A DNA stretch of 64,000 nt, taken from the NCBI GenBank assembly GCA_965214705.1, contig OZ243972.1, forward strand, positions 2,592,001-2,656,000. Reading direction: 5' to 3'. This DNA comes from Alphaproteobacteria bacterium (lineage in GTDB: Bacteria > Pseudomonadota > Alphaproteobacteria > UBA828). Shown here piece after piece: positions 20,404-46,726 of the stretch. Below the pieces are notes generated by a model. It worked only from the letters and a program-made list of their open reading frames with translations, was not told the origin of the DNA and did not search any database. Every line of letters begins with the position of its first letter. Within the stretch, counting starts at the first letter, position 1. The position numbers were made by a program, and so were the translations under genes.

Positions 20404-20570
20404 GAATTCGACCTCCCTGTGTCATCGCTCAGCATTCAGTCGGAATGCCTGGAGTACTGTCTTCCGATGTATAGCGGTTGCCCCAGCCAAGCCCGCTAGA
20501 CCGAGTTTGCTGGACTACGCCCCGTCATGCGACGCGGCAACGTTTCTGCAAGTCCCCTTGTCCATCACCT

Positions 20571-20661
20571 TGTTGTTCGGCACGTCGGTTGCGCGTCGAT
20601 CGCGCGATAAGCTATTGAAGTGGCTCGATAATTAGGGGTCACAATTGCACGCCGAGCAACA
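20571..20661 (-). repeat. 91-bp IS21-end-like miniature element, copy 3
   Basis: Reverse complement TGTTGCTCGGCGTGCAATTGTGACCCC...TCAATAGCTTATCGCGC...CCGAACAACA aligns with copy 2. Confidence 0.7.
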
Positions 20662-21120
20662 GACTGGGCGTCCAGCGCCGGCAAAATCATGCCGAATGGA
20701 TCGCGGCCTTCACCGGATGCTCAGAGTGCCAGGCTAACTGGTGGAAGGGTAGCGGGTGAAAGTCCCGCGAAACGAAAGGAGTAGCCAACCACGTTTCTCC
20801 GCGAGCCGTGCATCGTCGGCCGTGAGGCTGGGGGTGAAGCGTCGGTAGCGGTGCATGCGGGCAGGGACAGTGAACGCCGAAAACGAGATGGTCCGAAGTG
20901 CCGAGACGGTTGAGCACGTCGAAGGCAACATCTCCCGCACCGTAATATGGCGAGGTGTGAGGGAGCTTCGCGGCGTCGGGGACCCCATGCACGCATGTAA
21001 GCCCACCACCGGGACCTGGGAGGTCTTCACTCTGCCCCGATGGTCGTATCGGGGCCGCGAAGGGAAGGAGGTATCCGAAGCCTGAGATGAACGGAGTGAA
21101 GAAGTCGGACGGGGCCATAG

Positions 21121-22322
21121 GGAAGGTCTGATCAAGTCGAGTGTGCCATGATTTTCGTAGGAGTCGCAGATTGGATGATCGGGTCATGGCACAGGCGAGC
21201 TTTTCGGAACTGGAGCACGACTTGAAGAAGCGCCGGACGCGGCGCGAGCTGTTCCTGGAGAAGATGGACAAGCTGGTTCCCTGGGAGCGGCTGGAACGGC
21301 GGATCGAGCCGTTCTATCCGAAGGCGGGGCGCGGTCGGCGCCCGTACCCGCTTGCGGTGATGCTGCGCGTTCACTGCGTGCAGCTGTTCTACAACCTGAG
21401 CGATCCGGGGATGGAGGACCTGCTCTACGAGGTGGAGTCGGTGCGGCGTTTCGTGGGGCTGCGGCTGGCGGAGGCGTTGCCTGACGAGACCACCATCCTG
21501 AACTTCCGGCATCTTCTGGAGAAGCACGGCCTGGGCGAGGGTCTGTTCGAGGAGATCAATGCGCACCTGGCGTCGCGCGGCCATTGGCTGCGCACGGGGA
21601 CGATCGTTGACGCGAGCATCATCGAGGCGCCGTCGTCGACGAAGAACCGGCGCCGCGCACGGGACCCTGAGATGCGTCAGACGAGGAAGGGCAAGCAGTG
21701 GTATTTCGGGATGAAGGCGCACATCGGGGTGGACGCCGGGTCGGGTCTGGCACACAGCGTGGTGACGACGGCGGCCAACGCAAGCGACGTGACGCAGGCG
21801 GGAGCGCTGCTGCATGGCGCTGAGACGACGGCGTGGGGCGACGCGGGCTACCAGGGGGTGGAGAAGCGTCCCGAGCACCGGGATGGCGGTGTCGAGTGGC
21901 GTGTGGCGATGAAGCCGGGGCGGCGCCGGCTGCTGGCCGGGGGTGGCGCCGAAGCGGCGGCCGAGACGCGCAAGGCGTCGGTGCGGGCGAAGGTGGAGCA
22001 TCCGTTCCTGTACGTGAAGCGGCACTTCGGCTACGCCAAGGTGCGCTACCGGGGCGTGGCGAAGAACAGGCAGCGCATCGCGTTGCTGCTGGGGTTCTCG
22101 AACCTGCTGATCGCCGGCCGCTACGCGACGCAATGACAGGGGAGCAGTCCGCCCGCCGCCGGCGGGACGACGGGGAATGCGGCGGATCGACGCGGATATC
22201 GCCCGTTCGCTCCGTATCCCGCGACAAAAGCAGCCCCCGGCCTGCCGGCAATATCGTCGAGCTTCAAATCCAAGCCCCCTCTCCCCCTCGAAGCCGCCAA
22301 GATGGGGTTGTTCAGACTTTCC
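21121..22322 (+). mobile_element. IS5-family insertion sequence
   Basis: TIRs GGAAGGTCTGATCAA/TTGTTCAGACTTTCC; TSD ATAG at 21117-21120 and 22323-22326. Confidence 0.95.
21186..22136 (+). CDS. IS5 transposase
   Basis: RTRRELFL, PDETTILNFRHLLE, IVDAS, FGMKAHIGVD, GDAGY, RAKVEHPF. Confidence 0.96.
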   Translation: MAQASFSELEHDLKKRRTRRELFLEKMDKLVPWERLERRIEPFYPKAGRGRRPYPLAVMLRVHCVQLFYNLSDPGMEDLLYEVESVRRFVGLRLAEALPDETTILNFRHLLEKHGLGEGLFEEINAHLASRGHWLRTGTIVDASIIEAPSSTKNRRRARDPEMRQTRKGKQWYFGMKAHIGVDAGSGLAHSVVTTAANASDVTQAGALLHGAETTAWGDAGYQGVEKRPEHRDGGVEWRVAMKPGRRRLLAGGGAEAAAETRKASVRAKVEHPFLYVKRHFGYAKVRYRGVAKNRQRIALLLGFSNLLIAGRYATQ

Positions 22323-22327
22323 ATAGT

Positions 22328-24351
22328 GTGTGCTGGGCAGCGCCCAGATCAGGTGGGTTCAAGTCCCACTGGCGCTCGGGTAAGGGGCGCCATATCCAAA
22401 AGTGGGGGTAATTCCTCACTGGCCGGAGTGAGCCGATAAGCGAAACTCTAAACGGGCACGAAGCCGGAAACGGCGGAGACAGCCAAGGGAGGAGCTAAGT
22501 TGGTCCACTGTCGAAAGACAACCGGAAGGCAGGGTGTCCACCGCGAGGTGGAATCTGAAGGGCTTGCGGAGAAGTACCGGGCCGTAATCGAGGGGGCCAC
22601 CCCATGATGAATCGGTCGGCCAAAGACGGGGCAAGGTCGAGCCGGCACTATGGCGGCGAAGGCGTTCTTACCCACCCGTCGCACCAAGGTGTTTGCGAGC
22701 GGCACGGTACGGAAGATCTGGACGTGACCCCAGGAGGGCTCGCCGCGTTCCCGGGTGGCACCGGGATAACGGACCCTATAAGCCGAAAGGCGAAATGGGA
22801 AAGGATGCGCGGCGAGCAATCGGACAACCGAATAGTACCTGAAGCCCGGCGAAAGCCGGGTGACCGCGCGAGCGGCGGCCGTGTGGGCCGGGGAAGTCGG
22901 TTGGCAGAGGTGGTCGGCGAGAGACAGCGATGAGTGAGTAAGGACCATGACGCGGACAAGTTCCTTGAGCGAAAGACCCGGACATCATGGCCCGAGGAGA
23001 CTCATCGACTGGATCAACCCGGCGGGTGACAGGAAGGTCCACTCACTGGTGGACAAGGTGTACAAGCGGAAGAACCTTGAGGTGGCCTGGGAAAAGGTGA
23101 AGCGCAACCGGGGTGCCGGTGGCGTGGACGGAGAGGATTTAGCGGCGTTCGAGGCATCGCTGGATGCAAATCTCGATCGCCTGCACCGGGAGTTGCGGGA
23201 CGGTGAGTATCACCCGCAGCCGGTTCTCCAATGCCTGATCCCCAAGGCGGGCCAGCCGGGGAAGTTCCGCCCGCTCGGCATCCCGACAATCTACGACCGG
23301 GTGTGCCAGCAGGCGCTGCTGAACCGGCTGGAACCGATCTTCGAGCCGGTGTTCGACGATGCCAACTACGGGTACCGGCAAGGAAGGTCTGCCCATGGAG
23401 CGTTACGCAAGATATGGAGGGAACTGGACGAGGGCAACGAGTGGGTTCTCGATGCGGATTTGAAAGACTTTTTCGGGTCCGTGGACCACGAAAAGCTCCT
23501 CGAACTCGTCAACCAGCGAGTCTCGGATGGCCGGGTATTAGGTCTGCTCAGGCAGATGCTCACGGCCGGGGTGGTGGCCGACGGTAAGAGGCTGCCGACC
23601 GAACAGGGCACTCCGCAGGGCGGCATCGTTTCACCGCTGCTCAGCAATATCTTGCTGACCCCGTTCGATTGGGAAATGCGTCGTCGCGGCTATCGACTAA
23701 CGCGATACGCCGATGATTGGCTGATCACGTGCCGCACACGCGGGGAAGCCCGCGCAGCACTGGAGACGGCCAGGCGGATTCTGGCAAAGCTGGGTGTGTC
23801 CCTCAACGCCGGGAAGACCCGCATTGTCCATGTCAGGCACGGGTTTGAGTTCCTCGGCTACAAGATCAAGCAGGGCGAGCGGCCTCTCCGGCTGTCGTCC
23901 TCCAAGATCAAGAGCGGGGTTCGCGGGGGAGCGCGCTACGCGGTTCCGCGTGAGAAATCCATCCGGCACTTCAAGGACCAGATTCGCCAGCGTACCCGGC
24001 GCAAGGCTCCTGTCAGCACGCAGGAGCTGATTGACGAGATCAACCCGATCATTCGGGGATGGGGCCAATACTATTGCAAGGCCCACGTCCGCGGGCTCTT
24101 CCACCAGCTTGACGGCTGGATCGTGCGGCGGCTCTGGTCGCATCGTCGCAAGCGCTGGCGCAACGCTGGCTGGAAACAGTTGCCGGAGCGCAAGCTGATC
24201 GACGAATACGGGCTTGTTCGCCTGATCTCACTGGTTCCGTCCTTGAACCTTCGTTGAGACACCTTTGTGAAAGCGGCTTACGGGAAAACCGTACGGGCCG
24301 TTTGAGCGGCGGACGGAGGCTAGCCTCGCGGGGCGCCTCCTCCGACCCGAC
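22328..24351 (+). mobile_element. group II intron B (intact), inserted inside intron A
   Basis: 5' GTGTG; EBS1 ACTATG (22647-22652) pairs with upstream CATAGT; DV AAAGCGGCTTACGGGAAAACCGTACGGGCCGTTT; 3' CCCGAC. Removing it restores ATAGT/ACCGATGAAG of intron A. Confidence 0.9.
22947..24257 (+). CDS. ltrA: group II intron reverse transcriptase/maturase, no endonuclease domain
   Basis: HSLVDKVY, GAGGVDG, RPLGIPT, DADLKDFF, GTPQGG, RYADD, FEFLGY, X domain NPIIRGWGQYY. Confidence 0.95.
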   Translation: MTRTSSLSERPGHHGPRRLIDWINPAGDRKVHSLVDKVYKRKNLEVAWEKVKRNRGAGGVDGEDLAAFEASLDANLDRLHRELRDGEYHPQPVLQCLIPKAGQPGKFRPLGIPTIYDRVCQQALLNRLEPIFEPVFDDANYGYRQGRSAHGALRKIWRELDEGNEWVLDADLKDFFGSVDHEKLLELVNQRVSDGRVLGLLRQMLTAGVVADGKRLPTEQGTPQGGIVSPLLSNILLTPFDWEMRRRGYRLTRYADDWLITCRTRGEARAALETARRILAKLGVSLNAGKTRIVHVRHGFEFLGYKIKQGERPLRLSSSKIKSGVRGGARYAVPREKSIRHFKDQIRQRTRRKAPVSTQELIDEINPIIRGWGQYYCKAHVRGLFHQLDGWIVRRLWSHRRKRWRNAGWKQLPERKLIDEYGLVRLISLVPSLNLR

Positions 24352-24850
24352 ACCGATGAAGCGGGCGAACAAGGGGGCGCGAGCCCCTGCGGAACCTGTG
24401 GAGGGAAGGGCCTCGACCAAGGGGAATCCGCGAAGCGAAAGCACGCGCCGGACGCAGGGCCGGGAAAGCGTGACCCAGGCCGCCGAGCGGATACGTCAAG
24501 CTGCAACGAGGAAGCCGCAGGAGAAACTGACGGCGCTCCTGCACCATGTCACACCGGACGCGCTGCGCTGGGCCTTCCACGCGTTGAAGCGGGACGCCGC
24601 GGCGGGGATGGACGGCATGACATGGGCTGAGTACGCGAACGGTGTTGTTTCCCGCTTTAGCCGGATAGCGGGTCGGCGATTTTTCTCACATTGATCGGTT
24701 CAGGGATTTCCCCGGATGGTGGGGGAAAGCGGGAGATCGGCGAGCATCGCGGCTTCGGCGGTTGGCGGTGCCGGGGCGGGACCGTAGTCTCGGGCTGACG
24801 AGGAACAAGAAAGAGGCCCGCGCGGGCTGACTCCCGCCGGGCCATGGCCG

Positions 24851-25486
24851 GTGCAGCTTCGCTACGAAACGGGGCTTACCGGCGAGGAATACGTTAGGGC
24901 CGAGGCGTGGCGCGACGCAAGGCTTGAGCGCTGCCCGAATCACCCGCACGGCGGATGTTCCGTGGGAAGCCACGGCACCTACGGGCGGAAGACCCCGCCC
25001 GGCGCGAGGGTTCCTCGCTGGTATTGCCGCGAGAGCCATACGACGATCAGCCTTCTGGCCGACTGCCTGGCGGCGCGGCTGCCGGGCACGCTCGACGATC
25101 TGGAAGCGGTTGTCGTCGCGGCCGAGGGCGCGAAGAGCCAGGAGGAGGCGGCGAACGAGGTGCGCCGCCCCGAGGACGATGACGCCATCGAGCTTCCCGG
25201 CGCGCTGCGCTGGCTGCGCCGGCGGGTGGATCTCGTCCACGATGTCCTTTCCCGCGTTATCGGCCTGATCCCCGACAAGCTCGCGGGCTGCGCCGCCACC
25301 ATGAGCGCGGTGCGCGACAAGCTCAAAAGCAACCGCGCATTGATGGCGCTGCGCGGCCTGGTCGCCGGGCAGCTGCAGGCGCTGCCCGCGCCGTTGGGCT
25401 TCCAACCCCACGGAACCGGCGCGAGGAGTCGCAAGCCGGGCCTCCAACACTCGATGGGGCCTGATCCGCCCCCGCCAGGCGCCTAG
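24851..25486 (+). CDS. putative Zn-binding transposon accessory protein (DUF6431-like position)
   Basis: CPNHPHGGC...HGTYGRK...RWYC...TISLL; first gene of the element. Confidence 0.65.
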   Translation: MQLRYETGLTGEEYVRAEAWRDARLERCPNHPHGGCSVGSHGTYGRKTPPGARVPRWYCRESHTTISLLADCLAARLPGTLDDLEAVVVAAEGAKSQEEAANEVRRPEDDDAIELPGALRWLRRRVDLVHDVLSRVIGLIPDKLAGCAATMSAVRDKLKSNRALMALRGLVAGQLQALPAPLGFQPHGTGARSRKPGLQHSMGPDPPPPGA

Positions 25487-25530
25487 CGTCATGGTCCCGG
25501 GCCCGAGGGGCCGCGAACGAGGACCGTGAC

Positions 25531-26850
25531 ATGAAGGAATCGGATGACGACCTCCGCCAGGCGATCGCGCTCTTCCGATACGGCGTGATCGCCGATCTGG
25601 TGCATCTGCCGCTGGGCACGAAGGGCGTCGGCGACAGGCTTCGCGAGAAGGCCAGCCAGCCCTATGCCATCCCCGGAACCGACCGGACCCGGGTTGCCGC
25701 CGACACCATGCGGGAGTGGATCAGGCACTACCGCGATGGCGGCTTCGAGGCGCTCTACCCCAAGCCGCGCACCGACCGGGGCAAGCCCCGGCGGCTGCCG
25801 CCCGAGGTCGCCGAGCGCCTGGTCGCGCTGAAGGCCGACAACCCGGCCTGGCCGGTGCGCGCGATCATCCGCGCGGCCGCCGAGGAGGGCATCGATCACC
25901 CGCTCGCGCCCTCGACCGTGCACCGGCTGCTGAGCCGCGAGGGGCTGTTCGACAGGAAGCCGCCGGACGGCGCCGACCGCCGCCGCTTCGCCTTCCGCGA
26001 GGCCGGCGAGCTGTGGATGAGCGACGTCATGCACGGGCCCAAGGTCCGCTTCGGCCGGAGCCGGCGCAAGACCTACCTCATCGCATTCATCGACGACGCC
26101 ACCCGGGTCGTGCCCTTCGCCGCCTTCGCCACGGCCGAGAACGTCCAGGCCTTCCTGCCCGTGTTCAAGAATGCGCTGATCCGCCGCGGGCTGCCGCAGC
26201 GCCTTTATGTCGACAACGGCGCCGCCTACCGCTCCCGCCATCTCGCCCTGATCTGCGCAAGACTGGGCGTCGTGCTGGTGCATGCGAGGCCGTATCAGCC
26301 AGCCGGAAAGGGCAAGATCGAACGCTGGTTCAGAACGCTTCGCGCCGGCTGGCTCGCCCATCTCGATGCGCCGGTCCTGGACAGCCTCCAGACGCTCAAC
26401 CGCAGCCTCTGGGCGTGGATCGAGGGCGAGTATCACGACACCCCGCATCGCGGCCTCGAGGGACGCACGCCGCTGGAGCAGTGGGCGTTGGCCTCGGCCG
26501 CGGTCCGCTACCCCGACGCCACGCTCGACCTCGACGACATCTTCCTCTTCGAGGCCAGGCGGCTGGTCCACAAGGACCGCACCGTCAGCCTCAACGGTCG
26601 CGTCTACGAGGTCGACGCCATCCTGGTCGGGGAAAGGGTCGTGCTGCGCTACGACCCGGAGGCACCGCCCGGCCGGCCGCTCGACGTGGTCTGCGACGGA
26701 AAGCCCGCCGGCCAGGCAACCCGCCTCGACGCCTATGCCAACACCGCGGTGAAGCGCGGCCACTACTCCAAGAAGATCGAGCCCGACGACCCGGCGCCCG
26801 AGCCGCCGCCCTCGCCGCTCAAGATGCGCAAGTTCAAGGAGGACGACTGA
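25531..26850 (+). CDS. DDE transposase/integrase (IS481/Mu-like, rve core plus C-terminal beta-barrel)
   Basis: N-terminal HTHs, WMSD, FIDD, YVDNG, KGKIERWF. Confidence 0.92.
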   Translation: MKESDDDLRQAIALFRYGVIADLVHLPLGTKGVGDRLREKASQPYAIPGTDRTRVAADTMREWIRHYRDGGFEALYPKPRTDRGKPRRLPPEVAERLVALKADNPAWPVRAIIRAAAEEGIDHPLAPSTVHRLLSREGLFDRKPPDGADRRRFAFREAGELWMSDVMHGPKVRFGRSRRKTYLIAFIDDATRVVPFAAFATAENVQAFLPVFKNALIRRGLPQRLYVDNGAAYRSRHLALICARLGVVLVHARPYQPAGKGKIERWFRTLRAGWLAHLDAPVLDSLQTLNRSLWAWIEGEYHDTPHRGLEGRTPLEQWALASAAVRYPDATLDLDDIFLFEARRLVHKDRTVSLNGRVYEVDAILVGERVVLRYDPEAPPGRPLDVVCDGKPAGQATRLDAYANTAVKRGHYSKKIEPDDPAPEPPPSPLKMRKFKEDD

Positions 26851-27650
26851 TGTACCAGCGCCACTTCGCCCTGACCGGCATGCCCTTCGAGACCCCGGCA
26901 CAGACCGACGAGCTGTTCGAATCCTCGGCCCGGCGCGAGGCCGAGGCCAGGCTCGGCCACCTCATCGAGCTCAAGGGCATCGGCCTGCTCACCGGCGAGG
27001 TCGGCGCCGGCAAGACCACCGTCTGCCGCCACCTCACCGACCAGCTCCACCCGGGGCTGTATCGCGTCCATTACGTCTCGCTCACCACCGGCAACGTGCT
27101 CGACACCTACAAGGCCATCGGATGGGAGCTCGGGCTGACCGTCGAGCGATCCCGCTCCTCGGCCCATCACGCGATCAGGACCGAGATCTCCCGCCTCGCC
27201 AAGGAAGCCAGGCAGCTCCCCGTCCTCGTCGTCGACGAGGCCCACCATCTGCGCAACGACGTGTTGGAGGATCTCCGCCTGCTGACCAACTTCGCCATGG
27301 ACTCCGAGAACCGCATGTGCCTCATCCTGGTCGGCCTCACTGAGCTCAGGCGGCGGCTGTCCATGGCGGTGCATGAGTCCCTCAGCCAGCGCCTCGTCGT
27401 GCGGCACCACCTCACCGGCCTCGAACGCGACGAGGTCGACGCCTATCTGACCCACCGCCTCCGGCTCGCCGGATGCGAGCTGCCGCTGTTCGAGGAGGCC
27501 GCCGTCGAGGCCCTGTTCCAGGGCACCCGCGGCCTGCCGCGCCAGATCAACCGCATCGCCCATTACGCGCTGTCGGCCGCCGCCCTCGACAAGGCAAAGA
27601 CCGTCAACGCCAACCACATCCAGACCGCCCTCGACGAGCTTCAGCCATGA
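26850..27650 (+). CDS. ExeA-family AAA+ ATPase (TniB/TnsC-like transposition partner)
   Basis: GEVGAGKTT, VLVVDEAH, LSQR, GLPRQIN; start overlaps the transposase stop. Confidence 0.9.
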   Translation: MYQRHFALTGMPFETPAQTDELFESSARREAEARLGHLIELKGIGLLTGEVGAGKTTVCRHLTDQLHPGLYRVHYVSLTTGNVLDTYKAIGWELGLTVERSRSSAHHAIRTEISRLAKEARQLPVLVVDEAHHLRNDVLEDLRLLTNFAMDSENRMCLILVGLTELRRRLSMAVHESLSQRLVVRHHLTGLERDEVDAYLTHRLRLAGCELPLFEEAAVEALFQGTRGLPRQINRIAHYALSAAALDKAKTVNANHIQTALDELQP

Positions 27651-28714
27651 ACAGCGTCGCCACCGAGGGCATGGCGATGACCGGCTTCCCGACGCGGGCG
27701 CCGATCGAGCTGGAGGACCGGCCGCGCCAGCAGCAGTGGCTCATCGACGGGCTCTGGGGGCGCCAGGCCGTCGGCATCGTCGGCGGCGAGCCGAAGTGCG
27801 GCAAGTCCTTCCTCGCGCTCGACATCGCCGTCGCGGTCGCCGCCGGCGTCCCATGCCTGCGCCGCTTCGCCGCCGACCGGCCGGGCCCGGTCCTGCTGTT
27901 CGCCGCCGAGGACGCCGGGCACATCGTGCGTGCCCGCCTCCAGGGTATCGCGAGCGCCGCCGGCGCCCGCTTCGACGCCCTCGACATCGCGGTCATCGAC
28001 GTGCCCGCGCTGCGCCTCGATCATCGCGCGGACCGTCAGCGCCTGGTGCAAACGGTGGAACGCGTCCGGCCCCGCCTCGTGGTCCTCGACCCCCTGGTCC
28101 GCCTGCACGGCATCGACGAGAACACCGTCGCCGAGGTCGCCCCCATCCTCGGCTTCCTGCGCGACGTCCAGCGCCGCTTCGAGACCGCCGTGCTGCTGGT
28201 CCACCACGCACGAAAGAGCGGCGCCGCCAGGCCGGGCCAGGCCCTGCGCGGAAGCAGCGAGCTGCACGCCTGGGGCGACTCCAATCTGTACCTGCGCCGG
28301 CGAGACAGGCAGATCCTCATGACCGTCGAGCATCGCGCCGCCCCCGGCCTCAACGACATCGAAATCGAGCTCGCCGACGACGGCAAGGGGCCCGCGCTGC
28401 GCCTCCGCCAGGTCGAGACCGGCGATGCCGCGCCGCGGCCCGAAACCCCTGAACGGCGCATCCTCCAGGCCCTCGCCGAAGCCGACGCGCCGCTCTCCCA
28501 GCGCCAGATCCGGGAGCGCGCCGCAACCCGGCACAAGACCGTGGGCGCCATCCTGCGAAAGCTCGTCCGTGAGGGACGCATCCGGCACGACGCCGAGGGA
28601 CATTACAGCCTCGTCACAGGCGAAACCGAGAACGCCGCGCCGGACGACGCCGCCAATGGCAGCCGCCATCCGGACGCCTCGCGGTTCCCGCCTCCCGGTT
28701 CCGCCCATCCCTAG
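27647..28714 (+). CDS. RecA-superfamily (AAA_25, RepA-helicase-like) ATPase with C-terminal winged helix
   Basis: QWLIDGL, GEPKCGKS, AAED, LVVLDP, VHHARK, RGSSEL; C-terminal ILQAL..LSQRQI..LRKLVREGRI..Y; ATGA overlap with the ATPase. Confidence 0.8.
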   Translation: MNSVATEGMAMTGFPTRAPIELEDRPRQQQWLIDGLWGRQAVGIVGGEPKCGKSFLALDIAVAVAAGVPCLRRFAADRPGPVLLFAAEDAGHIVRARLQGIASAAGARFDALDIAVIDVPALRLDHRADRQRLVQTVERVRPRLVVLDPLVRLHGIDENTVAEVAPILGFLRDVQRRFETAVLLVHHARKSGAARPGQALRGSSELHAWGDSNLYLRRRDRQILMTVEHRAAPGLNDIEIELADDGKGPALRLRQVETGDAAPRPETPERRILQALAEADAPLSQRQIRERAATRHKTVGAILRKLVREGRIRHDAEGHYSLVTGETENAAPDDAANGSRHPDASRFPPPGSAHP

Positions 28715-29515
28715 GAGTTCGAGCGGGAACCGCCCGCCGGAACCGCCCCCCAGGCGCCTCTCGGGCTCAAAAAACGACAATGCGTCGAGCGATCGGCCCG
28801 TGGCCGAAAGCTCCGCTTACGGCCATGGATGCACTTCGTCGGATGGACGGCGGCGGGTCACCCGAAGGGCCGTAGCGAAGCGGAGGAGCCGCGCAGCGGC
28901 TTGACGCGCCGACGGCCGTCCGACACCCCGGCACCCTGTCCCCCTTCCGGCAATGACCGATCAGTCCGGGAAATACGCGCGCCCGTCACCCGAAATAACC
29001 CGGGAAATCCGTCGTCAATCAATCCGGGAAACAACAACGGGCTGGAAGAGCGGCTGCTCGACCTGCACCGGCGCGTGCAGTCCGGGGCGTATCGAGCGCC
29101 GCCGGTCCGGCGGGTAGAGATACCCAAGCCGGACGGCGGGACACGACCGCTCGGCGTTGCCGCGCTGGAGGACAAGATCGTCCAGAAGGCGGTGACGGAG
29201 ATCATCCTGACGCCGATCTACGAGCCGGTCTTCCTCGGCTTCAGCTACGGGTTCCGACCGGGGCGCGGGGCGCATGACGCGCTCGACGCGCTCGCTGTCG
29301 CCATCAATCGGCGGAAGGTCAACTGGGTGGTCGACTGCGACATCCAAAGGTTCTTCGATACCGTTTCGCGGGACTGGCTGGTCCGGTTCCTCAAGCACCG
29401 GATCGGGGACCGGCGGGTGATCAGGCTGATCGTCAAGTGGCTGAAAGCCGGCGTCATGGTCGATGGCCGGTGGCAGGACACCTCGCAGGGCACGCCACAA
29501 GGGGCGATCGTTTCG

Positions 29516-29547
29516 CCGCTGTTATCGGAACGTTCCGATAACAGCGG
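29516..29547. repeat. perfect 32-bp palindrome at the RIT left junction
   Basis: CCGCTGTTATCGGAAC-GTTCCGATAACAGCGG. Confidence 0.95.
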
Positions 29548-29642
29548 ATATGGGAACCTTATGATTCTGGGAACCTGAGCCGCTGCGGGCGTTGATTATC
29601 AAGGGATTGGGCACGGCTCAGGTTCCCATAAGATTGGCGGGT

Positions 29643-30635
29643 TCAGGTGCCTGCAAGCATCGCGAGCACCTCGTCCTGCGCACCCTTGAACACGCCCTTC
29701 CGGAGGCTGGGAGGGCGCCATTTGTCGAGCGTATCCAGCTTGTCGGTGGGATCCGCCTGCAGGTACATCTCGGTGGTCTGAACGCTGGAGTGCCCGAGCC
29801 AGAGTGAGACCTTCCTGACGTCGCCTGTCGCCTCGAGAGTGTGGATCGCGCAAGCGTGCCGCAATAGATGGGGAGATACGGTCTTGCCGGCGATCGACGG
29901 CACGCTGCGCGCAGCGGTTTGCGCATGCAGGACAATCCGTTTGGCGAAGCCGCGCCGGGTCATGCCGGTGCCCATGGCATTGAGGAAGAGATGCCGGTCG
30001 GCACTCTTCGGCCGGATAGCGAGCCAGTCGCGCAGGGCACCGCGGGTTTCCTTCCACAGCGGCAGGATGCGTTCCCGCCGGCCCTTGCCGATGACGTGCA
30101 CCTCGTCGAGGGCCGGCATCTTCAGATCGTCGAGCGCGAGCCCGACCAGCTCCGAGACCCGCAGGCCGGCGTTGTAGGTGAGACACAGCATCGCGCGGTC
30201 CCGTGTTCCAGCCACCGTGCCCGGATCCGGCGCGTCGAGCAGAGCCTGCGTTTCCGCCCGGTCGAGAGAGCCGATGAGGGGCACGTCGCCCTTCTTCACC
30301 GGGATCTCACGCACCTGTGCGGCGAGGTCGAGATATCCCGGGTGCCGGAACTCGAGGAAGCGGAAGAAGGCCTTGATGGCCGCGAGCCGGGCATTGCGTG
30401 TACGCACCCCGTTTTCCCGATCCCGTTCGAGATGTTCGAGGAACTCAAGAAGGGTCGCTATGTCGAGATGACCGATCTCGAGCTTGCAGGGCCGAATGCC
30501 GTGCTTATCCGCCACGAAGACGACCAACAACTTGAAGCACAGGGCATAGCTCTCAACGGTATGCCGGCTCGTGCCCCTGTCGCGTGGAAGATATTCCCGG
30601 AGGAACATCGCAAGGGGAGGAGCGAGTTCAGCCAT
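29643..30635 (-). CDS. tyrosine recombinase RitC-type
   Basis: TRNARLAAIKAFF, GLRVSE, GKGRRER, HLLRHA, LGHS, TEMY. Confidence 0.92.
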   Translation of the reverse strand: MAELAPPLAMFLREYLPRDRGTSRHTVESYALCFKLLVVFVADKHGIRPCKLEIGHLDIATLLEFLEHLERDRENGVRTRNARLAAIKAFFRFLEFRHPGYLDLAAQVREIPVKKGDVPLIGSLDRAETQALLDAPDPGTVAGTRDRAMLCLTYNAGLRVSELVGLALDDLKMPALDEVHVIGKGRRERILPLWKETRGALRDWLAIRPKSADRHLFLNAMGTGMTRRGFAKRIVLHAQTAARSVPSIAGKTVSPHLLRHACAIHTLEATGDVRKVSLWLGHSSVQTTEMYLQADPTDKLDTLDKWRPPSLRKGVFKGAQDEVLAMLAGT

Positions 30636-31554
30636 CGTTCTTCCTCCCCTCATGCAGCCGCTCGGTTGCCTGCGATACCTGTCGCAGCAACACAGGCGTC
30701 GCTTCGAGGTACCAGTAGGTGTCGGCGATGTTGGAATGGCCGAGATAGGTCGACAGCGCCAGCATGTGACGGCCGACATCCCGCCGCTCGGCCGAGACCA
30801 TATGTTCGAGCGCGCGAACTGCGAAGCTGTGCCTGAGGTCATGAAGGCGCGGCCCGGGCTCGCCTGGCCCGCCTCGAAGCCCGACCCGCCGTGCCAGCTT
30901 GATGAAGACGGTACAGAGATAGACCGGGTGCATGGGCCGGCCCGTCGAGAGCACGAACAGGTGGTCGTCGGGCCCACCGCGGCGCTTCCTCTCCGCGAGA
31001 TACGTCTCCATGGCCCGATGGACGCTGTCATCCAGCGGGATGAGGCGGCGCTTGCCGAACTTCGCCTTCCTGATCAGCAGGCCATCCACCGTCAGGTCCG
31101 TCAGCAGGAGGCCGGTCGCCTCCGAGCGCCGCAATCCGGTCGCGGCGATCAGCCCCAGGATGTAATGGAACGTCAGGGGCGTGATCGAACCGGCCGGCGG
31201 CAGCTCCAGCGCCGCATCCATGATCAGCCCGATCTCGGTCAATGACAGCAGATGAGGCGATGGCCGCCGTGATACTGCCTTGCCCAGGGCGTCGCGGTCA
31301 GGCACCTCGTGGCGTTCGTCTTCGGCGTGCAGGACGCTGGCAAGATCGCACACGTAGCGCAGCTTGACCTGCGCCTGGCGGGGAGACGGCGTTGTCGATG
31401 CCCAATCGAGGACCGTGCTGCTGCGCACGAAGCTGTCACCATGGGCCTCGGCGTAGGTCGCGTAATCCTGCAGGCACCGCGCCTGTTCCACATAGGCGTG
31501 GCCCAGAGCCCGGCGGAATATAACGTAACGCTCCACATGGTCGGCCAGGGTCAT
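30628..31554 (-). CDS. tyrosine recombinase RitB-type
   Basis: GLRRSE, KFGKRR, HDLRHSFA, LSTYLGH, TYWYL. Confidence 0.92.
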   Translation of the reverse strand: MTLADHVERYVIFRRALGHAYVEQARCLQDYATYAEAHGDSFVRSSTVLDWASTTPSPRQAQVKLRYVCDLASVLHAEDERHEVPDRDALGKAVSRRPSPHLLSLTEIGLIMDAALELPPAGSITPLTFHYILGLIAATGLRRSEATGLLLTDLTVDGLLIRKAKFGKRRLIPLDDSVHRAMETYLAERKRRGGPDDHLFVLSTGRPMHPVYLCTVFIKLARRVGLRGGPGEPGPRLHDLRHSFAVRALEHMVSAERRDVGRHMLALSTYLGHSNIADTYWYLEATPVLLRQVSQATERLHEGRKNDG

Positions 31555-33107
31555 CGTGCTTCTCCCGCGTCCGGCCAGGGCTGGGCCACTTCCCGGAGCA
31601 TTCGGACATCGACCCGCGCATAGATCGCCGTTGTCTGCGTGGACTGATGACGCAGCAGGGTGCCGATGACTTCCAGCGGCGTGTTGTCGCGCAGCAGATT
31701 GGTCGCCGCGGAATGCCGGAAGACATGCCCCGCCGGCAGACCCTCAGCCTTGACGCCGGACCGCTTGATCGCAGCCTGCGCGACCGCCGACACACCACCG
31801 CTGGCCAGGGGCTGATGGAGCGGCGGCATCATGCGCAGGAACACTTTCTCGGTATCCACGACAGGTCGGGCACGGAGGATGTAATCCTTGACCGCGGCGC
31901 CGACGTCCTGCGGCAACGGCAAGACCGCGGCGCGGCGCGATTTGCCGCTGACCCGAACGACGGCCTTGTCCCAGTCGATATCGTTCAGCCGAAGATTGGC
32001 GACATCGCCGGCACGCAGGGCGAGCCGGGCGAGGAGCAACAGGATGGCGCGATCCCGCAGTCCCATGGGCGTCGCCCGGTCGCAGGATGCGATGATGCGT
32101 TCGATGTCGTCCCGCGGCAGATGACGGGGCAATGTCGAGAACCTCTGAAGGGGGACCGTCGGCACCGCAGCGACAAGTCCCGGCCGGCAAAGGCCATCCA
32201 GCACGAGGAAGCGCAGATACAGCCGAAGCGCCGACGTCTCGCGTCGGACAAGATCGCGCGATGCCGTCTCAAGGCGGCACTGCACCGTGTTCCTGATCAG
32301 CGTCGCGCTGTATCGATCGGGATCGTCGCCAAGATGGGGAAGCAGCACCCGCATGGCCTTGTGGTAGCTCTCTATGGTCCTCTCCCCGATGCCGCGATAG
32401 CGCCGCAGCCAGACCAGAAAACGCGCCACATATTGTCCGGGTTCCTCGCGCGCCGGCATCGGGCGCGGCGGGGCGATGCCCGTGCCGATCAGGTAATCGA
32501 TGAACAACCCGATCTTCGATCGGCTGTTGTTGCAACCCGCGAATCTGCCGGTCCTGATGAAGAAGTCCGGATGCGCGCAGGTGCAGTCGTGCGCGAGGAA
32601 GCGGGAGAGGACATCGTCATCGATCTCGGCGAGTGCGACATCGTGCAGGTAGAGCCAGACGATGAAGTGGCGACAGCGCTTCCGGTACGCGGCGATCGAC
32701 TCGGGCACATATCCTTGTGCCACGAGCGTTTGAAGGAATGCCTCCACCACGCGGCCGCCGCTCTCGATCTCCGGAGGTATCCGCACTCGCCCCGTTTCCA
32801 TGAGGAAGCCGAGAAACCGGTGCAGATGCCATCGGGCACGTCCGAGGTTCTTCCGGTATCCGCGCGGACCGGGACAGGCGCAGTCATGGTTCAGGAATCG
32901 ATGCAAGACGCGAATGTCGAGCGTCTCGATCCCCATCCCGTTCGCCGACAACCATGCGATGAGGTGCAGGATCGTTCGGATGCACTTGCCCGTCAGGCTC
33001 GGGGAATATCCCAGGGCCTGCAACCGCGCCTTGTAGGTCGGGACGATGCCCGGATCCGGTCCATCACCCGCCTCGGGCGACGCCGTGTTGGTGATCATGG
33101 AAGACAT
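31551..33107 (-). CDS. tyrosine recombinase RitA-type (long form)
   Basis: LRAGDV, HVFRHS, LRH, TAIYA; duplicated N-terminal FL-x-HDC-x-C module. Confidence 0.92.
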   Translation of the reverse strand: MSSMITNTASPEAGDGPDPGIVPTYKARLQALGYSPSLTGKCIRTILHLIAWLSANGMGIETLDIRVLHRFLNHDCACPGPRGYRKNLGRARWHLHRFLGFLMETGRVRIPPEIESGGRVVEAFLQTLVAQGYVPESIAAYRKRCRHFIVWLYLHDVALAEIDDDVLSRFLAHDCTCAHPDFFIRTGRFAGCNNSRSKIGLFIDYLIGTGIAPPRPMPAREEPGQYVARFLVWLRRYRGIGERTIESYHKAMRVLLPHLGDDPDRYSATLIRNTVQCRLETASRDLVRRETSALRLYLRFLVLDGLCRPGLVAAVPTVPLQRFSTLPRHLPRDDIERIIASCDRATPMGLRDRAILLLLARLALRAGDVANLRLNDIDWDKAVVRVSGKSRRAAVLPLPQDVGAAVKDYILRARPVVDTEKVFLRMMPPLHQPLASGGVSAVAQAAIKRSGVKAEGLPAGHVFRHSAATNLLRDNTPLEVIGTLLRHQSTQTTAIYARVDVRMLREVAQPWPDAGEAR

Positions 33108-33937
33108 GCCGATTCTCCTGTCCAGGGGCAAAACCGGCAGGAGAAAAGCAGATTTTTATGGGAACCTGAGCCGTGCCCAATCCCTTGATAATCAACGCCC
33201 GCAGCGGCTCAGGTTCCCAGAATCATAAGGTTCCCATATCCCATACTGGCGAACGTGTATCTGCACTACGTCCTCGACCTCTGGTTCTATCGCAAGTGGC
33301 GGCCCGAAAGGGCAGAAGGCGACGCCATCATCGTGCGCTACGCCGATGATGTGGTCGTCGGGTTCCAGCACAGGCAGGACGCGGAATGCTTCCTGCATGC
33401 GCTTGGGGAGCGGCTCGGCCAGTTCGATCTGGCCCTGCATCCGGCCAAGACCCGGCTCATCGAGTTCGGCAGGTTCGCGGAGGTGGACCGCCGGGCACGG
33501 GGGCTGGGCCGCCCGGAGACGTTCGACTTTCTGGGCTTCACACACTATTGCCGGAAGACCAGAAGCGGGCGGTTCGGGCTCGGACGCAAGCCCGCTGCAA
33601 AGCGGATGAGCCGCACACTGAAGCGCGTCGCGGAGGTTCTGCGGCGGCGCAGGCACCACGACCTCCACGAGGTCGCCCGGTGGCTGGGGCGGGTCGTCAA
33701 CGGGTGGCTGAACTACTATGCCGTCCCGACGAGTGCCCGCTTCCTGCGACGCTTCACCTACATCCTGAAACGGATATGGCTGAAGGCACTGCGCCGACGG
33801 TCGCAACGGGATCGCTTCAGCTGGCAACGGCTTCAAGCCCTGGTGGACTGATATTGGCCCAAGCCGTGGATCCGCCACCCGTGGCCGGGACAGCGGTTCA
33901 ACGTCAAATACCCGAGGTAGGAGCCGGATGGTTTAAC

Positions 33938-35908
33938 CCGAACTTCCCCAGCAGATATTGAGCTAAGTTGTTGCGGTGGCTTTCCAAACCACCGTTTCGC
34001 GGAGTCGCGTACTGGGTACGCTACAGGCTGACGCCAAGCAGATCGAGCGCCTGGCGCTGTACCGGCGTCGGCTTGGTGACCAGATCGAAGGGCGGTGCTC
34101 CGGCGAGTTTCGGTTGAACGCGGTTCCTGGCGATGGTCGCCAAATCATCGAGGAGCGTGCGGAAGCTGTGCACCGGCATCCCGTCTGGCGTGCGTTTGCC
34201 GGCGGCCTTGCGACGGGCGGAGGGCGAGGGCTTTGCCGGTGAGACGATGGAAGCGCGCGCGGCGTCCGCAGCGGCCGGGTCGTCCTCGTCGAACAGGATG
34301 GGGGCGAGCCTTTGGCGCATGTGCCATTCGACGTGGTAGGCGAGCATGCACAGCAGCACGTGGGCGCGCACGCGCTCGGGGCGGTAGTGGTGGATGGGCC
34401 GCACCTTGAGGTCGACGGTCTTGACGCTGCGGAAGGCGCGCTCGATGCGGCTCAATCCCTTGTAGGCGCGCACCGTGTCCTCGGCTCCGAGCTCGCCCTC
34501 GGGCACGCTGGTGCGGATGACGTAGAGGCCATCGAGCGCCGCCTCCTCGGCGATCCGCTCCCGGTTGCGCTGCCAGGTGAAGCCGTCATCGGCGATCTCC
34601 AGCTCGAAGTGCTTGGCGACCTTGTGCTTGCCGATGACCTTGCCCACGCGCAGGCCGATCTTGTCCTTGCCGGCGAGGCGGCGCTTGGCGCGCCGTGTTG
34701 CCGCTCGGATCTCGTCGAGGTCGCCCTCGGTGGCCTGGAGCAGGGCCTCGCGCTTGCGCGCCCTCTCGACGGCGAGCAGCGGGTTGCGGCAGGCGATCAG
34801 GCGTTCGCCGGGGAAGTCGGGATGATGGATCTCGGCCAGGTCGCGTTCGTCGAAGAGCGAGGGCTGCAGCGTTCCGCTGGAGGCCAGCTCCCGGATCGCC
34901 GGCGCCCGCAGCGCGCTGATCCACTCCAACCCGGCCGGCTTCACCTCCTCGCGGATGCGCGCCTCGGTGAGCATGCCGCGATCGCCCACCAGCACCACCC
35001 GCGAGAGGCCGAAGCGCCGGCGCAGCTTGTCGATCTGGGAGCCCAGGGTGGCCGGATCGGCGGTGTTGCCCTCGAACACCTCCACCGCCACCGGGCAGCC
35101 CTGCGCGTTGCACAGGAGCCCGAACACGATCTGCAGCTTGCCGCGCTTGCCGTCGCGGGAGTAGCCGTGATGCGCCAGCGGGCAGCAGCGCCCCTCCAGC
35201 CATGTCGAGGTGACGTCGTAGAGTACCAGAGCGCCGTCCTCGAGGTGACGCTCGGCCAGACGCCGTTCGATCCTGCCCTGGCGCTCAAGCAGCCAGTCCA
35301 TCGCCTGGTAGAGTTCGTCTTCGTCGACCTCGCCCAGGTCGAGGGCCTCGCCGAGGCCGCAGCTCAGGGTGTCGCCGCTGAGCCCGCGTGCGGTGGCGAG
35401 CTTCGAGCGCGGCGCCACGATGCGGGCGACGATCATCGCCGCCGCGAGGTCGCGCAGCCGCGAGCGCCTGGCCGCGATCAGCCGTTCCAGACCGAGGCCG
35501 CGCAGAGCCCCGAGCACCGCTGCGACATGGCCGAAGGGACGCGAGCGGGTGATGTCGAAGCCGTCGTCCTCGCGGCGCTTCTCGCCGCGGGGCACAGCGG
35601 TTCCGCCGCGCAAGAGGATGCGCAGGCCCTCGACCAGGTGCGGGGGCCACCTGGAGAGGTTGGCGAGGGTGCGCTTTCTGATTTTTCCGCCTTCGCGCCA
35701 TGATTCGCGCAGGAGGATTGCGGGGGGTGAGTTCCGGTTTGGGACGCTTTCGATATACATGGGGACGGATCATAGTGCCTGACCCGCAAAATATCAACGC
35801 CCCATCCTCATTTACATGGGTACACTTTGCATCCGCACCAACGGCCGATACGTCCGCAAAAACAAAGACTTATGCCCGAAAATCAGCGAAATTCTGGGGG
35901 AAGTTCGG
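33938..35908 (-). mobile_element. IS1634-family insertion sequence in domain V of intron A
   Basis: TIRs CCGAACTTCCCC/GGGGAAGTTCGG; 6-bp TSD TTTAAC (33932-33937, 35909-35914). Confidence 0.93.
34021..35760 (-). CDS. IS1634 transposase
   Basis: LLRESWREGGK..RTLANLS, LYDVTS, GYSRD, VGDRGM, YKGLSRIERAFR, RPIHH. Confidence 0.94.
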   Translation of the reverse strand: MYIESVPNRNSPPAILLRESWREGGKIRKRTLANLSRWPPHLVEGLRILLRGGTAVPRGEKRREDDGFDITRSRPFGHVAAVLGALRGLGLERLIAARRSRLRDLAAAMIVARIVAPRSKLATARGLSGDTLSCGLGEALDLGEVDEDELYQAMDWLLERQGRIERRLAERHLEDGALVLYDVTSTWLEGRCCPLAHHGYSRDGKRGKLQIVFGLLCNAQGCPVAVEVFEGNTADPATLGSQIDKLRRRFGLSRVVLVGDRGMLTEARIREEVKPAGLEWISALRAPAIRELASSGTLQPSLFDERDLAEIHHPDFPGERLIACRNPLLAVERARKREALLQATEGDLDEIRAATRRAKRRLAGKDKIGLRVGKVIGKHKVAKHFELEIADDGFTWQRNRERIAEEAALDGLYVIRTSVPEGELGAEDTVRAYKGLSRIERAFRSVKTVDLKVRPIHHYRPERVRAHVLLCMLAYHVEWHMRQRLAPILFDEDDPAAADAARASIVSPAKPSPSARRKAAGKRTPDGMPVHSFRTLLDDLATIARNRVQPKLAGAPPFDLVTKPTPVQRQALDLLGVSL

Positions 35909-35970
35909 TTTAACGACCACGTCCGGATCTGTGCGGGGGGCGCCGGAAAACCGGCGTCCCTACCGCGACC

Positions 35971-36201
35971 GATATTCTACACCCTCAAGGAGGCCCAGGT
36001 TCTCATCGAATCGTGGCGGTGCCATTACAACGCGATCCGCCCACATGGCAGCCTGGGATACCGGCCGCCGGCCCCGGAGACGGTCGTCTTGACAAGCCGG
36101 CCGCCCGGTCCGCTACGCTACGCTCCGCCGGCCACCCAGCTTGGCCGAGAAACCGGCAATGCACTAACATTCGACTTGGACCGGTCGCTGGGGGCAGGTC
36201 A
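35971..36201 (+). pseudogene. IS3-family remnant (transposase C-terminus and right end)
   Basis: IFYTLKEAQVLIESWRCHYNAIRPHGSLGYRPPAPE; terminal ..GGGGCAGGTCA. Confidence 0.8.
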
Positions 36202-36282
36202 ACGCGTCGACCAACAAACAATGCTCTAACCAGCGTCTACGGTGCTGTCCAGCCCCAGGGAGCCACTCCATAGGTGCGGTCA

Positions 36283-43804: not shown

Positions 43805-44475
43805 GAGCGCCAGGCTAACTCTGTCGTGGATAGCCGGTGAAAGTCCGGTGAAGGGAAGGACTAACGAACCACCCTTGCCTTGAGCCGTGCGTCGGCCTTC
43901 GCGAGGAGGCAGGCGAAGCGTCGGTAGAGGTGCGCGTGGGCAGGACATTGAGCACCGAAAATGCCGTCATTCGGAGTGCCGAGGCCATCCAGAAGGTCGA
44001 AGGCAACACCGGCCGCCCGCTTTCGTGAGGGCCGGCAGGGCTCCGCGGTGTCCAAGACCCCAGGCACGCGCGTACGTCCACACAGGGGACCTGGGAGGCC
44101 TCTTCATCACCCGTGCCTCAGAGTGCGGGTCGTGACGGGAAGGGTGGATGCCCATAGCCGTCGATGTACGATGGGGAGGAATCTGACTCGGTCGTAGTAC
44201 CGTTGAAACGGGGGAACAAAGGGGCGTGACAACCTTGGCGGACTTCGTGGAGGAAAGGACCGGGGCCAACGGGAGATCGGGGACCTGAAGCATGTGCCGG
44301 GCACAGAACCGGGTAAGCATGTCACAGGAGGGTCTCCGAACACGCCGCCGTGCGAGACGTCGCAAGAGCGACGAGAGTGCGCCGGACGTCTGACCGGAGG
44401 CAGGAGCCGGATGCCTTAGCGGGCACGTCCGGATCTGCGCGGGGGGCGCTGGGTAACCAGCGTCCCTACCGCGAA
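43805..44475 (+). ncRNA. ORF-less group II intron C (about 670 nt, DI-DVI)
   Basis: 5' GAGCG; DI homologous to intron A; DIII GTACCGTTGAA..GGAGGAAAGG; DV GAGCCGGATGCCTTAGCGGGCACGTCCGGATCT; DVI ending CCCTACCGCGAA. Confidence 0.85.
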
Positions 44476-44522
44476 GATGAAGCGGCGTGATTCCGGCTTT
44501 GAGGTCCGGTTTGGGCAGGACC

Positions 44523-46437: not shown

Positions 46438-46726
46438 CCAGGTCCCCTGTGTGGACGTACGCGCGTGCCTGGGGTCTCGGACACCGCGGAGCCCCGCCGC
46501 CCTCACGAAAACGGGCGGCCGGTGTTGCCTTCGACCTTCTGGATGGCCTCGGCACTCCGAATGACGGCATTTTCGGTGCTCGATGTCCTGCCCACGCGCA
46601 CCTCTACCGACGCTTCGCCTGCCTCCTCGCGAAGGCCGACGCACGGCTCAAGGCAAGGATGGGGCGTCAGTCCTTCCCTTCACCGGACTTTCACCGGCTG
46701 TCCACGACAAAGTTAGGCTGGCGCTC
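46438..46726 (-). repeat. 5' (domain I) fragment of intron C, inverted
   Basis: About 12 differences (manual count) against 43805-44094; same EBS1 loop. Confidence 0.9.

Follow-up and report, generated by a model that had tools for sequence, protein, structure and literature searches.

Why does a group II intron of 1.9 kb occupy 15.2 kb of chromosome, and what brought five mobile elements into it? The question is raised by intron A, which lies at 20724..35969 (+) of a 64,000-nucleotide stretch of alphaproteobacterial DNA (hereafter the window), corresponding to C1:2592001-2656000 of genome G000, a 7.9 Mb assembly in three Mb-scale contigs. The original prediction held that insertions from five mobile-element families had swollen the intron, and element boundaries, profile matches and reassembly agree on this picture. 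Briefly, the most probable explanation is that five recent and independent insertions took place in an old, inactive group II intron, itself lodged in a dead transposase gene of the IS3 type. Two of the invaders, a second group II intron (intron B) and a recombinase-in-trio (RIT) element, would have read conserved intron sequence, and the other three, an insertion sequence (IS) of the IS5 family, a transposon with four open reading frames (ORFs) and an IS of the IS1634 family, would be tolerated chance insertions. All five invaders have sister copies elsewhere in the genome, with 99.9-100% identity. Element borders were set by genome-wide comparison of copies and by direct reading of the junctions, and profile matches were obtained from Rfam for the ribozyme parts and from Pfam and NCBIfam for the proteins.

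Reassembly of intron A

Removal of the five insertions by coordinate left exactly 1917 bp, the length that had been predicted for the repaired intron. The rejoined reverse transcriptase (RT) gene reads continuously for 493 codons from an ATG at 21087 and includes the YADD motif; its sole break is the TGA at 33849-33851, which had likewise been named as the single further lesion. Over 487 residues, the rejoined RT shares 69% identity with an RT at locus L029 that is intact and uninterrupted, stands next to a RIT, carries Arg where intron A has the stop, and reads SPILAN at the RIT site.

The intron is spread over five pieces, all on the plus strand. Piece 1 (20724..21120) comprises the 5' ribozyme domains and RT codons 1-11; its start was placed by alignment to related introns, RF02005 matches 20759-20985 (+) with 159.6 bits against a gathering score of 49 over model positions 1-225 of 225, and its last 4 nt (21117-21120) are the left ATAG copy of the IS5 target-site duplication (TSD). 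RT codons 12 to about 108, ending in ..MTWAEYANG, form piece 2 (24352..24642), which is 89% identical to A' introns whose site for intron B is unfilled. Piece 3 (29037..29517) opens with the repeat ACGG (29037-29040) and carries RT motifs 0 to 4 up to ..GTPQGAIVSP (RVT_1 positions 1-132, matched within 28829-29578). Piece 4 (33242..33937) continues from ..ILANVYLH through YADD and the maturase domain (RVT_1 145-204 and GIIM, within 33255-33851) into the 5' half of domain V (DV), contains the premature TGA, and ends in the 6-nt TSD TTTAAC of the IS1634-family element. The 3' half of DV and domain VI (DVI), ending in ..CCCTACCGCGAC, make up piece 5 (35909..35969).

In group II introns, DV is a hairpin with an AGC triad and DVI has a bulged A near the 3' end. 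Once the IS1634-family element and one TSD copy are taken out, the tail of intron A forms two hairpins, one resembling DV and the other DVI; this DV sequence type has 10 uninterrupted occurrences in the genome. No DV or DVI model matched intron A or B when Rfam was run with permissive thresholds over 20000-48000. In intron A, RF00029 is without a score because DV is split by the IS1634-family element, and the DV type of intron B is evidently poorly covered by Rfam. Group II introns usually begin with 5' GUGYG and end with 3' AY. Intron A ends in ..CGAC and begins with GAGUG at the point where the flanks diverge, and its relatives of the A', D and E types begin with GAG(C/U)G where theirs diverge. 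Reassembly and a hunt for intact copies had been proposed together as a check; the first restored the intron, and the second found no second intron A in this assembly, where the nearest relatives are 72-82% identical and the closest piece is a 3' fragment of 91% identity (C3:2746218-2746749). Given five insertions and a premature TGA, splicing and retrohoming are presumed to be lost.

Several details of the first reading were corrected. Intron A is housed in what remains of a transposase gene of the IS3 type, of which the 5' flank (20659..20723, +) is 94% identical to C1:1511849-1511785 and the 3' flank (35970..36229, +) encodes the C-terminal end (rve_3, E = 4.5e-11, ORF 35816-36229); rejoined across the intron, the flanks read ..IFYTLKEAQVLIESWR.., and the remnant has an OYE-like oxidoreductase gene on one side and an allophanate-hydrolase-C-like gene on the other. 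The IS5-family element and intron B had been placed just before domain III and are actually 34 nt past the RT start codon, at codons 11-12 in domain IV (MNGVKKSDGAIV|PMKRANKG).

Nesting of this kind could be an assembly chimera, produced by collapsed or mis-joined repeats: all invaders are multi-copy repeats (99.9-100% identity), one of the RIT copies runs into the end of a contig, and CheckM-type contamination is 8.7%. Every junction, however, carries either the expected duplication or an exact joint without one, the RT frame is restored to the base, and the assembly consists of Mb-scale contigs. Furthermore, we aligned independent contigs (contigs, not long reads) of four public runs, which may be the source sample or close kin, to window 20500-36200, and took no contig depth as a copy number. 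Contigs of X15 and X18 lead from the unique flank through intron A into the IS5-family element (20500-21170, 0 mismatches). A 718-nt contig of X16 joins 21120 + T + 24352, with both IS5 and B missing from intron A; this joint matches the prediction from unfilled A' sites, and the contig runs 28 nt into the transposon end. In X1, a 351-nt contig with 0 mismatches joins 29515 to 33240 and skips 3724 bp. With flank and predicted empty sites seen in other runs, a chimera is extremely improbable.

Intron B and the RIT element at fixed codons of RT genes

Intron B (22328..24351, +; 2024 bp, GTGTGC...CCCGAC) is nested in the RT gene of intron A, and its borders follow from unfilled A' sites and 21 copies. 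It encodes its own RT/maturase at 22947-24257 (+; TIGR04416, 384 bits with a cut-off of 300; RVT_1 and GIIM). Eleven of the 21 5' ends stand directly after the codons ..SD(S/G)(A/P)IV| of RT genes, distributed over outer families A (one), A' (two), A'' (five) and A''' (three), and two further ends have a similar context in a fifth type, X. For the remaining sites, non-intron ones included, the common ground is just ..C-(A/G)-TAGT|A. On the other side, the 3' exon goes on as the ..MK.ANK.. RT sequence of A-type introns in 12 of 21 copies. The site is unfilled in two of four A' copies, which read GGCCATAGT|AGCGATGAAG (C1:1870884, C2:592483), and, by coordinates, in two A''' copies. Judged by sequence, A and B thus appear to be a twintron, with an inner group II intron at a fixed outer site that is unfilled in sister introns, and the comparison of sites supports the view that B homes into the RT-gene start of other introns and so makes twintrons. 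It would retrohome into a short motif, ..C-R-TAGT|A.., which encodes the conserved SD-x-x-IV start of the RT.

The RIT element (29518..33241, -) measures 3724 bp, as delimited by an identical copy at C3:2988393-2992116 and by the empty-site contig. It has perfect inverted repeats of 86 bp (29546-29631 and 33156-33241), a 28-bp palindrome outside them (29518-29545), and three tyrosine recombinase genes with short overlaps (33131-31551, 31554-30628 and 31031-29643, all -; Phage_integrase in Pfam), whose products are Xer-like by NCBIfam below the equivalog cut-offs. The genome contains the window copy, the second copy, 100% identical over 3724 bp, and a third, partial copy at a contig end. All three stand after the same Ser-Pro codons of ..PQG..SP, encoded by TC(N)CC, in three different introns (A, B and X) and in both orientations. 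The window copy follows ..GTPQGAIVSP, in keeping with the predicted position after PQG. The left junctions read ..ATCGTTTCGCC^ in A, ..ATCGTTTCACC^ in B and ..ATCTCGCC^ in X, where the interior is inverted and the contig ends. On the RT-5' side of each element follow 4 nt (GCTG, GCTG and GATG, respectively), the 20-bp palindrome TTATCGGAACGTTCCGATAA, CAGC and the inverted repeat; the other end abuts the target directly, at CATACTGGCGAAC in A and GCTGCTCAGCAAT in B.

Filled and empty sites can be paired exactly. When 3724 bp are taken out at the C3 copy, which lies in B, the resulting 120-mer matches intact B exactly and has 19 occurrences in the genome, and the empty site of intron A in the X1 contig reads TCGCC-CATACTGGCGAAC (SPILAN), as in the L029 homologue. 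These pairs imply that the RIT makes no target duplication, with CATA belonging to the target and GCTG to the element; since CC is common to both sides, the joint can be placed at three positions. The first reading of the RIT was corrected on this point, and the 28-bp palindrome outside the inverted repeats was assigned to the element. GCTG had been considered as a 4-bp target duplication, which fits the C3 copy and fails both in the window (GCTG versus CATA) and against the empty-site contig. The RIT arms, compared with the target by eye for mimicry, showed weak similarity (..GAAC), on which no claim is made. The evidence supports site-specific entry, as a 3724-bp unit and without duplication, into the DNA for ..(I/V)-x-S-P of RT motif 4.

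Relatives were collected by a RitB search (37 loci) and by an exact palindrome search in metagenome contigs (20 loci). A DNA search in 61 related genomes returned nothing closer than ~66% identity outside G000, so these kin provided no further insertion sites. At L001 (88% RitB identity), ..PQGGVVSP is followed by 4 nt, the same palindrome and the inverted repeat, in an RT only ~40% identical to that of A; the right junction of L002 (88%) is ..SP|TLANMTLD; and the metagenome loci L095, L096 (with the same flank as L104), L098 and L102 have ..PQG(G/A)xxSP at the palindrome. The exception is L003 (86%), in the N-terminal codons of an IS1634-like transposase gene. In this clade, therefore, 9 of 10 distinct insertions (three genomic, six relatives from other assemblies) are at one RT codon, a count that leaves out 15 metagenome loci with the same 20-mer, another repeat type and another conserved flank. 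More distant clades likewise keep to fixed points in genes of other elements, namely in an RT 25 codons upstream (L007, KKWL|) and in the C-termini of IS110-type transposases (L004-L006, ..ARKLLIALWR|). The genome also holds a second RIT type of 3763 bp in three copies (C1:2694345, C1:4048688 and C1:4089422; L113), each inserted in a YAcAr/SLOG-domain gene four to five codons short of its stop, the palindrome GTTATGCCGAGCTCGGCATAAC being on the 5' side of the gene. Its removal in silico brings back an in-frame short C-terminus in all three cases; its left 6-mer, TGCACG, is constant and its right 6-mers are variable.

Two side observations concern these relatives. The 15 loci set apart above (L093, L094, L097, L099-L101, L103, L105-L112) have the same 20-nt palindrome beside a different repeat (..TTATCGGAAC.. 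motifs), and many of these contigs share a conserved flank, AACAAGC-hairpin-GCTTGCC; they possibly represent another RIT-like clade with its own target. A second pair of distant RIT-like recombinases (-), at L003:8607-10399, borders on an RT fragment whose end falls in the same region (A_RT residue 272).

Homologous recombination or gene conversion among similar RT genes might also have spread the RIT and intron B, given the conserved RT stretches around both sites and the similarity between A and B in the 32 nt left of the RIT. The flanks nevertheless differ on both sides of the element (TCGCC^CATACTGGCGAAC in A, TCACC^GCTGCTCAGCAAT in B), the RIT is found in either orientation and within RTs as dissimilar as that of L001, and B is also present at non-intron sites that have just ..C-R-TAGT|A in common. 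We regard spread by conversion as highly improbable.

The RIT junctions suggest a model of integration. A single motif recurs, with variation, in the outermost 10 nt of the inverted repeat (ATATGGGAAC) and in the palindrome half (TTATCGGAAC), and a 6-nt stretch (CC plus GCTG) and the 20-bp palindrome stand on the RT-5' side regardless of interior orientation. Joined RIT ends would form GTTCCCATAT-CCGCTG-TTATCGGAAC, a sequence whose reverse complement the element already carries between palindrome and left repeat. Either in this joined form or as one strand folded on its 86-bp repeats, the element would be a perfect palindrome with a core-type site in both orientations, and a 26-bp core site would exist only in one of these two states. 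Strand exchange between this site and a target ..TCN-CCNNNN-.., at one edge of the 6-nt spacer, would reproduce all observed junctions, leaving the palindrome on the RT-5' side for either orientation of the interior, the 6-mer of the element at the palindrome side and the 6-mer of the target at the other. All four cases in which the 6-mers differ and both junctions are known (intron A and three copies of the second type) show this distribution, which hints at one fixed exchange rather than two with random segregation, though four cases prove nothing. A single-edge exchange would resemble integron-cassette or CTX-phage single-strand integration. In general terms, RITs may be hyperparasites keyed to conserved codons of other elements, one widespread clade using the PQG..SP DNA of group II RTs and integrating conservatively, with no duplication, via a 26-bp core site (10-bp arm, 6-bp spacer, 10-bp arm); we offer this tentatively, as a proposal whose chances fall a little short of even.

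Other interrupted or nested introns were also noted. An A''-type intron of ~12 kb (C1:4025046-4037147) contains a copy of B that is interrupted twice, by an IS of 1683 bp and by an insert of 4.5 kb. A second inflated intron, again of A'' type (C3:2984180-2993829; L038, L073), has B at its RT start, a RIT in the RT of B, and an IS1634 copy in the outer DV loop (TSD CTTAGC). Within the window, an ORF-less group II intron of ~0.7 kb lies at 43805-44520 (+; RF02005, 168 bits; weak RF00029 DV at 44402-44475); it has four to five genome copies with a common upstream sequence, ..GGGGCAAATCCTGG|GAGCGCC, two of them head to tail (C1:1859845/1860516). The 5' domain of a third intron at 46438-46726 (-; RF02005, 155 bits), followed by an IS66-family transposase ORF (44523-46190, -), is probably another interrupted or truncated intron.

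Tolerance and targeting among the remaining invaders

The IS5-family element (21121..22322, +; 1202 bp) was delimited by copy comparison and its junctions. It has an IS5-type transposase at 21141-22136 (+; NF033581, 333 bits with a cut-off of 140), the ends GGAAGGTCTGA../..TCAGACTTTCC, and 4-bp duplications characteristic of the family, here ATAG (21117-21120 and 22323-22326). Among 21 copies and fragments at >=90% identity, the window copy is the only one that touches an intron; the other sites are YTAR (CTAA, CTAG, TTAG, TTAA), and ATAG is off-consensus. Its insertion in intron A looks accidental.

The same appears to hold for the four-ORF transposon (24643..29036, +; 4394 bp, ends TGTTGTTTCCCG../..CGGGAAACAACA), of which three copies exist at >=99.9% identity, one in the intron and two in ordinary GC-rich DNA. 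It encodes a protein of no family (24851-25486, +), an rve/Mu-C transposase (25531-26850, +; Pfam, with an IS481-like NCBIfam match of 215 bits, just below the 224 cut-off), an AAA_22 ATPase (26847-27650, +; Pfam) and an AAA_25 protein (27473-28714, +; Pfam). Tn7/Tn5053-like elements are recognised by TGT..ACA ends, a 5-bp duplication, and an rve transposase with an AAA+ regulator. The TGT..ACA ends and the rve/Mu-C and AAA_22 genes are present here, and no TniQ/TnsD or resolvase homologue was identified in the element. As a correction to the first reading of the flanks, the repeat is 4 bp in the window (ACGG, 24639-24642/29037-29040) and 5 bp at the two other copies (CCCCG, CGCGC); one base seems to have been lost at the window junction, with the RT frame nonetheless restored.

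The IS1634-family element (33938..35908, -; 1971 bp) has four full copies (100%) and one partial copy. Its transposase (35760-34021, -; NF033559, 326 bits with a cut-off of 100) and the 6-bp duplications with a YTAR core at four of four full copies agree with the family. In the window the TSD is TTTAAC (33932-33937 and 35909-35914) and, as predicted, lies in the DV loop, at GAGCCGGATGG-TTTAAC-GACCACGTCCGGATC; an unfilled homologue of this site is found at C3:2746218-2746330. Two of the five copies are in DV loops, each in another intron; they point in opposite directions and have unlike TSDs (TTTAAC and CTTAGC), and the other three are outside introns (TTTAGC, ATTAGT, (C)CTAAC). The genome has 9088 YTAR sites, and intron A just two, one of them the DV loop. 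In a congener (G012), a relative of 91% identity has 7 of 7 copies outside DV, at N-YTAR-N (7 duplications, two imperfect); this zero of 7 is uninformative because G012 has one DV of that type versus twelve in G000.

How readily introns take up insertions can be seen from the 1683-bp IS (ends GGGGGGTG../..TACACCCG, arbitrary 4-bp duplications, 26 copies at 99.9-100% identity, e.g. C3:1610864-1612546). It has no target preference, and 4 of its 26 copies are in B introns, at four different positions, indicating that insertions in introns are strongly tolerated. This count, the interruption of several other introns in the genome and the lack of an intron preference in the IS5-family element and the transposon would all suit a pure neutral sink, in which no invader recognises intron sequence. 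Such a sink is contradicted for the RIT, which occupies one and the same codon in 9 of 10 distinct insertions from several assemblies and classes of RT, and for B, with 11 of 21 copies at one RT-start position, because chance cannot give nucleotide-exact placement; we consider it very unlikely as a complete explanation.

The opposite extreme, that all five invaders seek group II introns, for instance via hairpins or conserved motifs, could draw on the five insertions in 1.9 kb, on the two DV-loop copies of the IS1634-family element, and on the IS5 site, 1 nt from the 5' splice site of B. It is at odds with 20 of 21 IS5 copies and fragments outside introns, at YTAR, with two of three transposons in ordinary DNA, and with IS1634 copies outside DV in three of five cases here and in all seven in G012 (though with one such DV there). 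The scarcity of YTAR in intron A also speaks against it, and we judge this explanation unlikely. For the IS1634-family element, the YTAR requirement and the tolerance of dead-element insertions could account for the DV position: the element would be steered to the DV loop as one of only two YTAR sites in intron A. Because YTAR is so scarce there and tolerance is strong, the DV matches are no compelling evidence of targeting, and DV targeting is not established; with both taken into account, the chance of two such matches is put at 0.01-0.05, a rough judgement and not a computed value.

The idea that the intron serves as a landing pad, either as a sink or by active targeting, therefore stands in part, with both routes at work for different invaders. 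The proposed tabulation of the other sites of the invaders gives 11 of 21 for B and three of three for the RIT in introns at a fixed site, with 1 of 21 for IS5, one of three for the transposon and two of five for IS1634; targeting is supported for B and the RIT, and none is evident for IS5 and the transposon. By the explanation that we prefer, two homing invaders joined by tolerated ones, IS5, the TGT..ACA transposon and IS1634 would be chance insertions that survived because a selfish element, once dead, is of no cost to its host.

Several points weigh against this explanation. Even for a sink, 1.9 kb is a short stretch to have received three seemingly untargeted insertions; ~0.06 would be expected if 10% of the genome tolerates insertions, a figure that is assumed rather than computed. 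The presence of IS1634 in two DV loops of ~12, among 9088 YTAR sites and with 5 copies, is unlikely under uniform use of YTAR, and the element may prefer hairpin loops. For the RIT, the left end of the intron X copy is GATG instead of GCTG, and in several metagenome relatives the left and inner 4-mers are non-complementary, unlike the simple model. The 2023 account of RIT elements (PMC10214605) describes their target specificity as untested and their transposition as not reproduced in the laboratory. Bridging contigs were found for part of the junctions, not all. In X18, a joint without the RIT (29515/33240, at a lower contig depth of 10.6) has just 28 nt on one side and was not counted under the 31-nt bridging rule; its occurrence in a run that also has the junction of flank, intron A and IS5 could be due to strain mixture, a second copy or excision.

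Comparison with known systems

Nesting and twintrons are already known, and the inflated intron itself is a good specimen, not a discovery. In the F3-in-F1 twintrons of Thermosynechococcus elongatus described by Mohr, Ghanem and Lambowitz (2010, PMC2882425), the outer RT ORF has two start codons and the inner introns lie between them; the authors also cite nested arrays in Methanosarcina acetivorans, describe an intron ORF interrupted by an IS (TeI4g), and note that twintrons enlarge non-essential target DNA. As in T. elongatus, the inner intron studied here occupies one conserved site by the outer RT start, in domain IV, and its copies are near-identical and the outer introns diverged. Unlike the inner introns of T. 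elongatus, which are ORF-less, B has its own RT; B is also found in at least four outer families, and intron A holds four non-intron elements besides.

RITs have been catalogued since 2009, and the present data supply a definite attachment site, a rule of insertion without duplication and a core-site model open to testing. According to three reports (Van Houdt 2012, PMC3414803; Idola 2023, PMC10214605; Nielsen 2017, PMC5737581), some RITs are inserted in a Tn6049-like transposase gene or in radC of an integrative and conjugative element, and RIT ends consist of inverted repeats with an overlapping palindrome; the 2017 report states that the mobilisation mechanism was not deduced. Those portions of the RIT literature that were searched contain no mention of targeting of group II introns or RT genes. 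The element described here shares with the known RITs three overlapping tyrosine-recombinase genes, a length of ~3.5-3.7 kb, inverted repeats with a palindrome, and identical copies. It differs from those accounts in a defined target in RT motif 4, filled and empty pairs, the absence of a duplication, and a one-sided palindrome. Tn554, SE and GInt are described in PMC10214605 as site-specific elements without a classical duplication, in which 6 bp at one junction come from the element or donor and those at the other from the target. The RIT resembles them in inserting site-specifically with no classical duplication and in carrying its own 6-mer on one side and that of the target on the other, and it is unlike them in having no counterpart of TnpC, Tfp or Srap, in its long perfect inverted repeats, and in a target within a retroelement gene.

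The most conserved stretch of a retroelement polymerase gene can thus act as a portable "safe harbour" in which a DNA element of unrelated kind settles, and such a parasite-on-parasite layer could limit the spread of introns. The tally for each invader provides a measured split of a "hotspot" into targeting and tolerance, with two apparent homing mechanisms and three apparently tolerated accidents. In nested transposon clusters, or "graveyards", insertions pile up where they are harmless. Unlike in such graveyards, part of the load of intron A would come from sequence-specific homing, and not from tolerance alone.

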